Source: Escherichia coli (GTDB lineage Bacteria > Pseudomonadota > Gammaproteobacteria > Enterobacterales > Enterobacteriaceae). From it: a stretch of DNA of 64,000 nt. The notes below the pieces were generated by a model. That model worked only from the letters and a program-made list of their open reading frames with translations, made no database searches and had not been told where the DNA came from. Positions 29,405 through 29,431 of this stretch are shown in pieces (the stretch's first letter is position 1; the number at the start of each line of letters is the position of its first letter). The stretch lies in the NCBI RefSeq assembly GCF_003334355.1, contig NZ_QOWP01000013.1; one strand, written 5' to 3'. A program made the position numbers and the translations under genes.

Positions 29405-29431
29405 TAAAGATTACCCGTCCCTTGCCGATAA
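29405..29431 (+). promoter_or_regulatory. Sigma-28 promoter for flgMN
   Basis: TAAAGATT-N11-GCCGATAA, a close match to the sigma-28 consensus TAAAGTTT-N11-GCCGATAA, about 45 bp upstream of the flgM start. Confidence 0.75.

Follow-up and report, generated by a model that had tools for sequence, protein, structure and literature searches.

The 64-kb stretch of DNA analysed here (the window) is the flg region of the Escherichia coli chromosome. A segment of ~1.7 kb carrying flgA, flgM and flgN has a 100% match in many E. coli chromosomes annotated with these three genes in this order and was found in 5425 of 5426 complete E. coli genomes. According to the RefSeq annotation of an identical genome, the gene order is rne, flgL to flgB (− strand), flgA-flgM-flgN (+ strand) and murJ, while the remainder of the window runs from fhuE/ptsG through to the csg genes. 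Between the end of the flgA stop codon at 29399 and the flgM ATG at 29475 is a spacer of 75 bp, in which no terminator-like site was found on the + strand; between the flgJ stop codon, ending at 21293, and the flgK ATG at 21227 (−) the spacer is 65 bp. Matches to Rfam families at the gathering threshold were all as expected for this region of E. coli and are listed, with the other features, in Table 1.

Table 1. Coordinates of the features discussed in the text, numbered from the first base of the window.
Feature	Position	Strand	Basis or remark
SraB sRNA	12848..13016	−	Rfam gathering threshold
rne 5′ UTR element	14877..15213	+	Rfam gathering threshold
flgK, hook-associated protein 1, first gene under the flgK promoter	19584..21227	−	Converted annotation coordinates
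Class 3 (sigma-28) flgKL promoter: TCAAGTCC (21287-21280), 11-nt spacer, GCCGATAA (21268-21261)	21261..21287	−	Sequence; FliA ChIP-seq site
Divergent flgB/flgA class 2 promoter region, FlhDC-dependent	28585..28739		FlhDC peak in Fitzgerald Table 1
flgA, first gene of the class 2 flgAMN transcript reading through into flgM	28740..29399	+	
RcsB box TGGGAATATTCTTA in the last flgA codons, 16 nt upstream of the −35 element	29375..29388		Matches TN(G/A)GAN4TC(T/C)NA
−35 element TAAAGATT of the class 3 (sigma-28) flgM promoter	29405..29412	+	7/8 consensus positions
Spacer ACCCGTCCCTT, 11 nt	29413..29423	+	Length fixed, sequence free across loci
−10 element GCCGATAA of the sigma-28 flgM promoter	29424..29431	+	8/8 consensus positions
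Shine-Dalgarno sequence GAGGA of flgM	29463-29467	+	Within the predicted 5′ UTR
flgM, anti-sigma-28 factor, 97 aa	29475..29768	+	Annotated in RefSeq for a genome with 100% identity
flgN, export chaperone, co-transcribed with flgM	29773..30189	+	Annotation; flgMN operon in Fitzgerald 2014
PyrC leader	36946..36995	+	Rfam gathering threshold
ES036	46126..46168	+	Rfam gathering threshold
ES056	56263..56354	+	Rfam gathering threshold
tRNA-Ser	61954..62038	+	Rfam gathering threshold
RtT	62268..62404	+	Rfam gathering threshold

The flgA-flgM spacer contains a two-block motif, TAAAGATT-N11-GCCGATAA, which sits at 29405..29431 (+), just upstream of flgM and exactly where an initial annotation of this DNA had placed it. 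The motif is wholly intergenic and in the right orientation, starting 6 nt past the flgA stop codon and ending 43 nt before the flgM ATG, and it agrees with the sigma-28 consensus TAAAGTTT-N11-GCCGATAA at 15 of 16 positions with the 11-nt spacer. Under equal base frequencies, sites with no more than one mismatch are expected ~0.0015 times per window (49 sequences × 128,000 positions / 4^16).

To score this motif, a weight matrix was built on FliA ChIP-seq sites (Fitzgerald et al., 2014) with the flgM and flgK sites excluded, and the random background consisted of 100 and 300 Markov-1 64-kb sequences with the same dinucleotide statistics as the window. The flgM site scored 28.3 bits over all columns and 25.2 bits over the two core blocks, the top of the window on both counts; since the core scores of 23 ChIP-supported FliA sites range from 7.7 to 25.9 bits, this places it near the top of the bound sites as well. 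Its score was reached by 0 of 100 and 0 of 300 random sequences.

The same matrix served for the scan for other sigma-28 sites that had been proposed with the initial annotation, and nothing in the window besides flgM and flgK stood out. The next-best matches, at 5690..5717 (+), antisense within pabC, and at 27323..27350 (−), in the sense direction within flgD, were rejected as having chance-level scores and being absent from the ChIP-seq list. Also rejected was 28640..28667 (−) in the flgA-flgB spacer, which carries a perfect GCCGATAA directed towards flgB, has no recognisable −35 element and scores 13.6 bits. Because FliA does not rescue flgB expression in an flhD deletion (Fitzgerald, 2014; PMC4183435), this copy of GCCGATAA may belong to the FlhDC operator and not to a sigma-28 promoter. 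A peak of 6.7 for sigma-28 holoenzyme in vitro has been reported at flgF-flgG, at ~24960 in the window (Shimada et al., 2017); the flgF-flgG spacer (24877..25047) contains no recognisable sigma-28 motif, with a best matrix score of 4.7 bits, and no ChIP-seq site.

Upstream of flgK, the motif TCAAGTCC-N11-GCCGATAA is present on the − strand as annotated, save that its end had been given as 21288, one base too far. With the 11-nt spacer intact, it matches 13 of 16 consensus positions (only 5 of 8 in the −35 element), and it is intergenic, on the strand of the gene, with 33 nt between the end of its −10 element and the flgK ATG. A score of 16.4–18.5 bits lies inside the range of validated sites. 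By sequence alone, the flgK motif is not above chance at the scale of the whole window: ~18% of random 64-kb windows contain some site as good, and this window itself has two unrelated sites with an equal score. The motif gains its specificity from lying, correctly oriented, within the 65 bp between flgJ and flgK, where a site of this grade would arise by chance with a probability of ~6e-5 (~38 start positions, scaled from the random rate).

At the other end of the flgKL transcript, the 3′ UTR of flgL (18538..18618, −), past the flgL stop codon at 18619, holds a strong terminator hairpin of 12 pairs (18577..18549) followed by a run of T. FlgO, a sigma-28-dependent, Hfq-bound small RNA, is reportedly processed from the flgKL mRNA at this 3′ UTR (eLife 2023, PMC10578931), in which case its output would depend on the flgK promoter. 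The FlgO region matched no Rfam family.

Within E. coli, 91 bp across the flgM promoter proved identical in 4903 of 5426 complete genomes, with the others differing at 1–4 positions. The genome that diverges most has four changes, one shortly before the −35 element, two in the spacer and one past the −10 element, and none in either octamer. Conservation of the flgK promoter was assessed in the same way and within E. coli: 91 bp around it are identical in 4925 of 5425 matching genomes, and its octamers are intact in the most divergent one. One complete E. coli genome lacks the flgJ-flgK spacer, and five plasmid-labelled records in the genome collection contain both the flgA-flgM and the flgJ-flgK regions; these may be mislabelled replicons or assembly artefacts.

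For comparison across genera, a FlgM protein scan with one genome per species yielded 80 loci from 17 named genera of Enterobacteriaceae, 78 of which had enough upstream sequence for motif analysis. Both blocks and their 11-nt spacing were kept upstream of flgM in all 78 loci, with TAAAG of the −35 element and GCCGAT of the −10 element invariant throughout. The fuller pattern TAAAGnnn-N11-GCCGATAn was found in 76 loci, the remaining two, from Salmonella subsp. arizonae and diarizonae, reading TAAAGATT-N11-GCCGATGA. The sequence of the 11-nt spacer differs freely among genera. Fixed blocks around a drifting spacer are what selection on a two-block promoter would be expected to leave. In Atlantibacter the flgA stop codon lies ~114 nt farther upstream and the sigma-28 promoter keeps its position relative to flgM, which suggests that the promoter is conserved independently of where flgA ends.

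Transcription from the class 3 flgM promoter (PflgM) probably starts at the A at 29439, giving a 36-nt 5′ UTR (29439..29474, +). We infer this from a published flgM construct that comprises nucleotides +1 to 105 and covers 23 codons (Romilly, 2020; PMC7549644), which implies a leader of 36 nt and a start 8 nt past the −10 octamer, a distance expected for promoters of this kind. Together with the early codons, the E. coli leader folds no better than shuffled sequences (z = 0.82). When 38 longer flgM leaders from other genera were analysed with RNAalifold, the sole shared structure was a CCUC/GAGG hairpin of 4 bp that is invariant and covers the ribosome binding site; it showed no covariation, because no position in it varies. 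Given the E. coli z-score and the lack of covariation elsewhere, the idea of a structured flgM leader was rejected.

The segment behind this result, CCUC-(G/A)AU-GAGG, stands shortly before the flgM ATG (29455..29467 in the window) and is unchanged in 38 of 38 aligned leaders. It can form a 4-bp hairpin covering the flgM Shine-Dalgarno sequence; the region that pairs with the small RNAs OmrA and OmrB lies in or adjoins it (Romilly, 2020; PMC7549644). The class 3 leader is 36 nt long in Escherichia and about 51–59 nt in most other genera, owing to an extra G+C-rich segment in which different short stems are possible in each genus and which is also missing from some Buttiauxella. RNAalifold detected no consistent structure in this extra segment.

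Binding of FliA at both motifs has been published. The FliA ChIP-seq sites of E. coli K-12 include TAAAGATTACCCGTCCCTTGCCGATAAA for flgMN and TCAAGTCCGGCGGGTCGCTGCCGATAAT for flgKL, both exact 28-mers of the window (Fitzgerald, 2014, Table 2; PMC4183435), and after coordinate conversion these two are the only sites of that table that fall inside it. Their fold-above-threshold scores are 48 for flgMN and 47 for flgKL (Fitzgerald, 2014; PMC4183435), and reconstituted sigma-28 holoenzyme gave in vitro peaks of 15.0 at flgA/flgM and 27.2 at flgJ/flgK (Shimada et al., 2017). The flgK site had initially been called the weaker of the two; that holds for its match to the consensus, but not for its occupancy, which is practically equal by ChIP-seq and higher in vitro. 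ChIP-seq and RNA-seq together support the overlapping operons flgAMN/flgMN and flgB-J/flgKL, with flgKL also read from the class 2 flgB operon (Fitzgerald, 2014; PMC4183435). The FlhDC peak in the flgA-flgB spacer is centred on 1130152 (Fitzgerald, 2014, Table 1; PMC4183435), or about position 28676 of the window after conversion, and deletion of flhD takes flgA expression from 319 to 3 (Fitzgerald, 2014; PMC4183435).

Published expression data on the FliA effect are mixed. RNA-seq of an E. coli MG1655 fliA deletion showed a drop of flgM from 451 to 318 and of flgK from 318 to 138, neither of them significant, and overexpression of FliA in an flhD deletion restored the expression of both genes (Fitzgerald, 2014; PMC4183435). 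Microarrays of a fliA deletion found flgM down 6.9-fold and flgK down 5.5-fold, and induction of FliA raised both about 2-fold (Zhao et al., 2007). For Salmonella, 80% of flgM transcription is attributed to the sigma-28 class 3 promoter, and the literature on that organism explicitly describes sigma-28-driven expression of flgM as a negative feedback loop. The ChIP-seq sites, operon layout, in vitro binding and expression changes thus bear out the annotated claim that flgM has its own sigma-28 promoter besides read-through from flgA, and the Salmonella literature the claim that this motif underlies a feedback loop.

We therefore read 29405..29431 as the class 3 promoter of the E. coli flgMN operon, with a probability of roughly 97%. 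Sequence, statistics, position and conservation were computed here, while FliA binding and the response of flgM and flgK are published for the same sequence. On this reading, RNA polymerase carrying sigma-28 (FliA) recognises TAAAGATT as the −35 and GCCGATAA as the −10 element, 11 bp apart, and transcription, probably from about 29439, yields an flgMN mRNA with the 36-nt leader; flgM is supplied in addition by the class 2 transcript that begins at the FlhDC-dependent promoter in front of flgA and reads through. FlgM binds sigma-28 and keeps it inactive until exported by the hook-basal body. As free sigma-28 drives flgM and FlgM inactivates sigma-28, active sigma factor raises the synthesis of its own inhibitor, closing a negative feedback loop. 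The motif at 21261..21287 (−) is the equivalent class 3 promoter of flgKL, a unit likewise read from the upstream class 2 flgB operon.

Both promoters are textbook features of E. coli that have been mapped experimentally, and for flgM the published record already covers the site, the binding of FliA polymerase to it and the part it plays in the feedback. The flgM promoter of the window does not differ from PflgM of the E. coli K-12 FliA regulon, sharing its 28-mer, its place after flgA, its class 2/class 3 control and its feedback role. PflgM of Salmonella differs from it in having GCCGATGA as the −10 element and a leader about 20 nt longer. The flgKL promoter is identical, over the 28-mer, to the published one and has the same dual layout with class 2 read-through from flgB; compared with the flgM promoter its −35 element is poorer, its ChIP occupancy equal and its in vitro peak stronger. 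The promoters of tar, tsr and yhjH are built likewise, as two blocks with an 11-bp spacer and a near-perfect GCCGATAA, but those genes are wholly FliA-dependent, with expression at about zero in a fliA deletion, whereas flgM and flgK retain most of theirs because of their upstream class 2 promoters.

Next to PflgM, the last codons of flgA contain the 14-mer TGGGAATATTCTTA, which fits the RcsB box pattern at every specified position. An identical 14-mer is the intra-CDS RcsB box of Salmonella flgA, which has been linked to flgM (Huesa et al., 2021; PMC7913699); there, phosphorylated RcsB bound it in gel shifts and a central-base substitution abolished binding (Huesa, 2021; PMC7913699), whereas the E. 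coli box is known by its identical sequence. The pattern is not rare (five in the window against 2.2 expected), so support for the box rests on its conservation and on the Salmonella experiment. It was found in 75 of 76 loci. Across 74 Enterobacteriaceae species, the four flgA codons GAT GGG AAT ATT have third-position entropies of 0.00–0.10 bits, compared with 0.3–1.9 bits for the preceding 30 flgA codons (leaving out a Met codon, which has no synonyms), and the Gly codon of the box is GGG in 73 of 74 loci, while other Gly codons of the same alignment use all four bases. Conservation of the last flgA codons at the nucleotide level is far stricter than the protein demands. Such conservation at synonymous sites was absent from the papers found in our literature searches; what is already published is RcsB binding at the box in Salmonella, and what would be new is its deep conservation and a possible direct regulatory role.

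The box is separated from the −35 element by 16–17 nt in most loci (62), by 37 nt in another 10 and by 125 nt in the last three. An UP element for PflgM was considered for this block and rejected, in that the block is fixed in the flgA frame while its distance from the −35 element varies; UP elements are A/T-rich and keep a constant place, ~−40 to −60 relative to the start, and the invariant part of the block includes GGG. That RcsB, an envelope-stress regulator, acts directly on flgM, by blocking class 2 read-through from flgA or by modulating PflgM, is a tentative reading to which we give rather less than even odds. If true, it would provide an Rcs input to the sigma-28/FlgM checkpoint that is independent of the known repression of flhDC.

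Could either motif be a fortuitous match to the consensus, devoid of promoter function? Matches with three or fewer mismatches number three in the window against 0.66 expected, a count that 3 of 100 shuffles also reach; the flgK score is reached in ~18% of random windows, and the sites in pabC and flgD equal it, yet are absent from the ChIP-seq sites. Against this, no random window attains the flgM score, each motif falls in a short spacer close in front of the gene it would be expected to drive, FliA ChIP-seq and in vitro holoenzyme binding each register both of them, and the flgM site is kept across genera while its spacer varies freely, so that we give chance practically no credence. A different proposal accepts conservation of the DNA around the motif and ascribes it mainly to a landing site for RcsB, repressing or blocking flgM from the flgA end, rather than to sigma-28 feedback. 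The near-invariance of the box at 29375..29388, even at synonymous positions, and the binding of the same 14-mer by phosphorylated RcsB in Salmonella speak for it. However, the box stands apart from the sigma-28 elements, by 16–125 nt depending on genus, and each block is conserved separately; chance alone produces the pattern often; and the experiments do not distinguish a direct effect of RcsB at flgM from repression of flhDC. An RcsB site would, moreover, add to the sigma-28 promoter and not replace it, and we consider it improbable as the main cause of the conservation.

The most serious competitor is that the flgM promoter is real but nearly idle in E. coli. The RNA-seq data favour this, in that deletion of fliA had no significant effect on flgM or flgK and deletion of flhD abolished expression, and the authors of that study saw only a very small FliA-dependent contribution to dual-regulated transcripts under their conditions (Fitzgerald, 2014; PMC4183435). 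Their result does indicate that PflgM can be occupied and yet contribute little. On the other side, the 6.9-fold fall of flgM in a fliA deletion was recorded in minimal medium (Zhao, 2007), FliA overexpression in an flhD deletion brings flgM to at least its wild-type level, the class 3 share of flgM transcription in Salmonella is large, and near-invariant octamers in 17 named genera argue for selection on promoter function. We regard an idle promoter as unlikely, though well short of far-fetched, and retain an active class 3 promoter as the preferred reading, with the rider that the share of E. coli flgM mRNA contributed by PflgM is condition-dependent, since the loss of FliA had so small an effect in the Fitzgerald conditions.

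A classic circuit has its sequence basis in the flgM promoter: the flagellar sigma factor activates the gene of its inhibitor, and late gene expression is released once FlgM leaves through the finished hook-basal body. The promoter can be recognised from raw sequence. What the present analysis adds is small and comparative: the invariant blocks and 11-bp spacing in 17 named genera, and the constrained RcsB box beside them.

Some further observations concern starts and RcsB boxes elsewhere. The Salmonella flgM start site taken from SalCom lies 17 nt after the RcsB box (Huesa, 2021, Table 2; PMC7913699), a position that corresponds to the first base of the sigma-28 −35 element and not to the expected sigma-28 start. 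It falls just past a perfect TATAAT formed by the last flgA codon and the stop codon, where E. coli has TGTAAG, and may represent either a third start, of sigma-70 type, or an artefact of bookkeeping. Additional matches to the RcsB pattern occur at 25941, 34213 (in the rimJ-mdtH spacer) and 51154, the total count in the window being near chance. One more, at 54314..54327 in the 3′-terminal part of csgC and ahead of ymdA, is TAAGACTTTTCTGA, the same sequence as the osmB box of Salmonella. An FlhDC ChIP-seq peak inside csgC drives ymdABC (Fitzgerald, 2014, Table 1; PMC4183435); it maps to about position 54427 of the window, ~100 bp from TAAGACTTTTCTGA.
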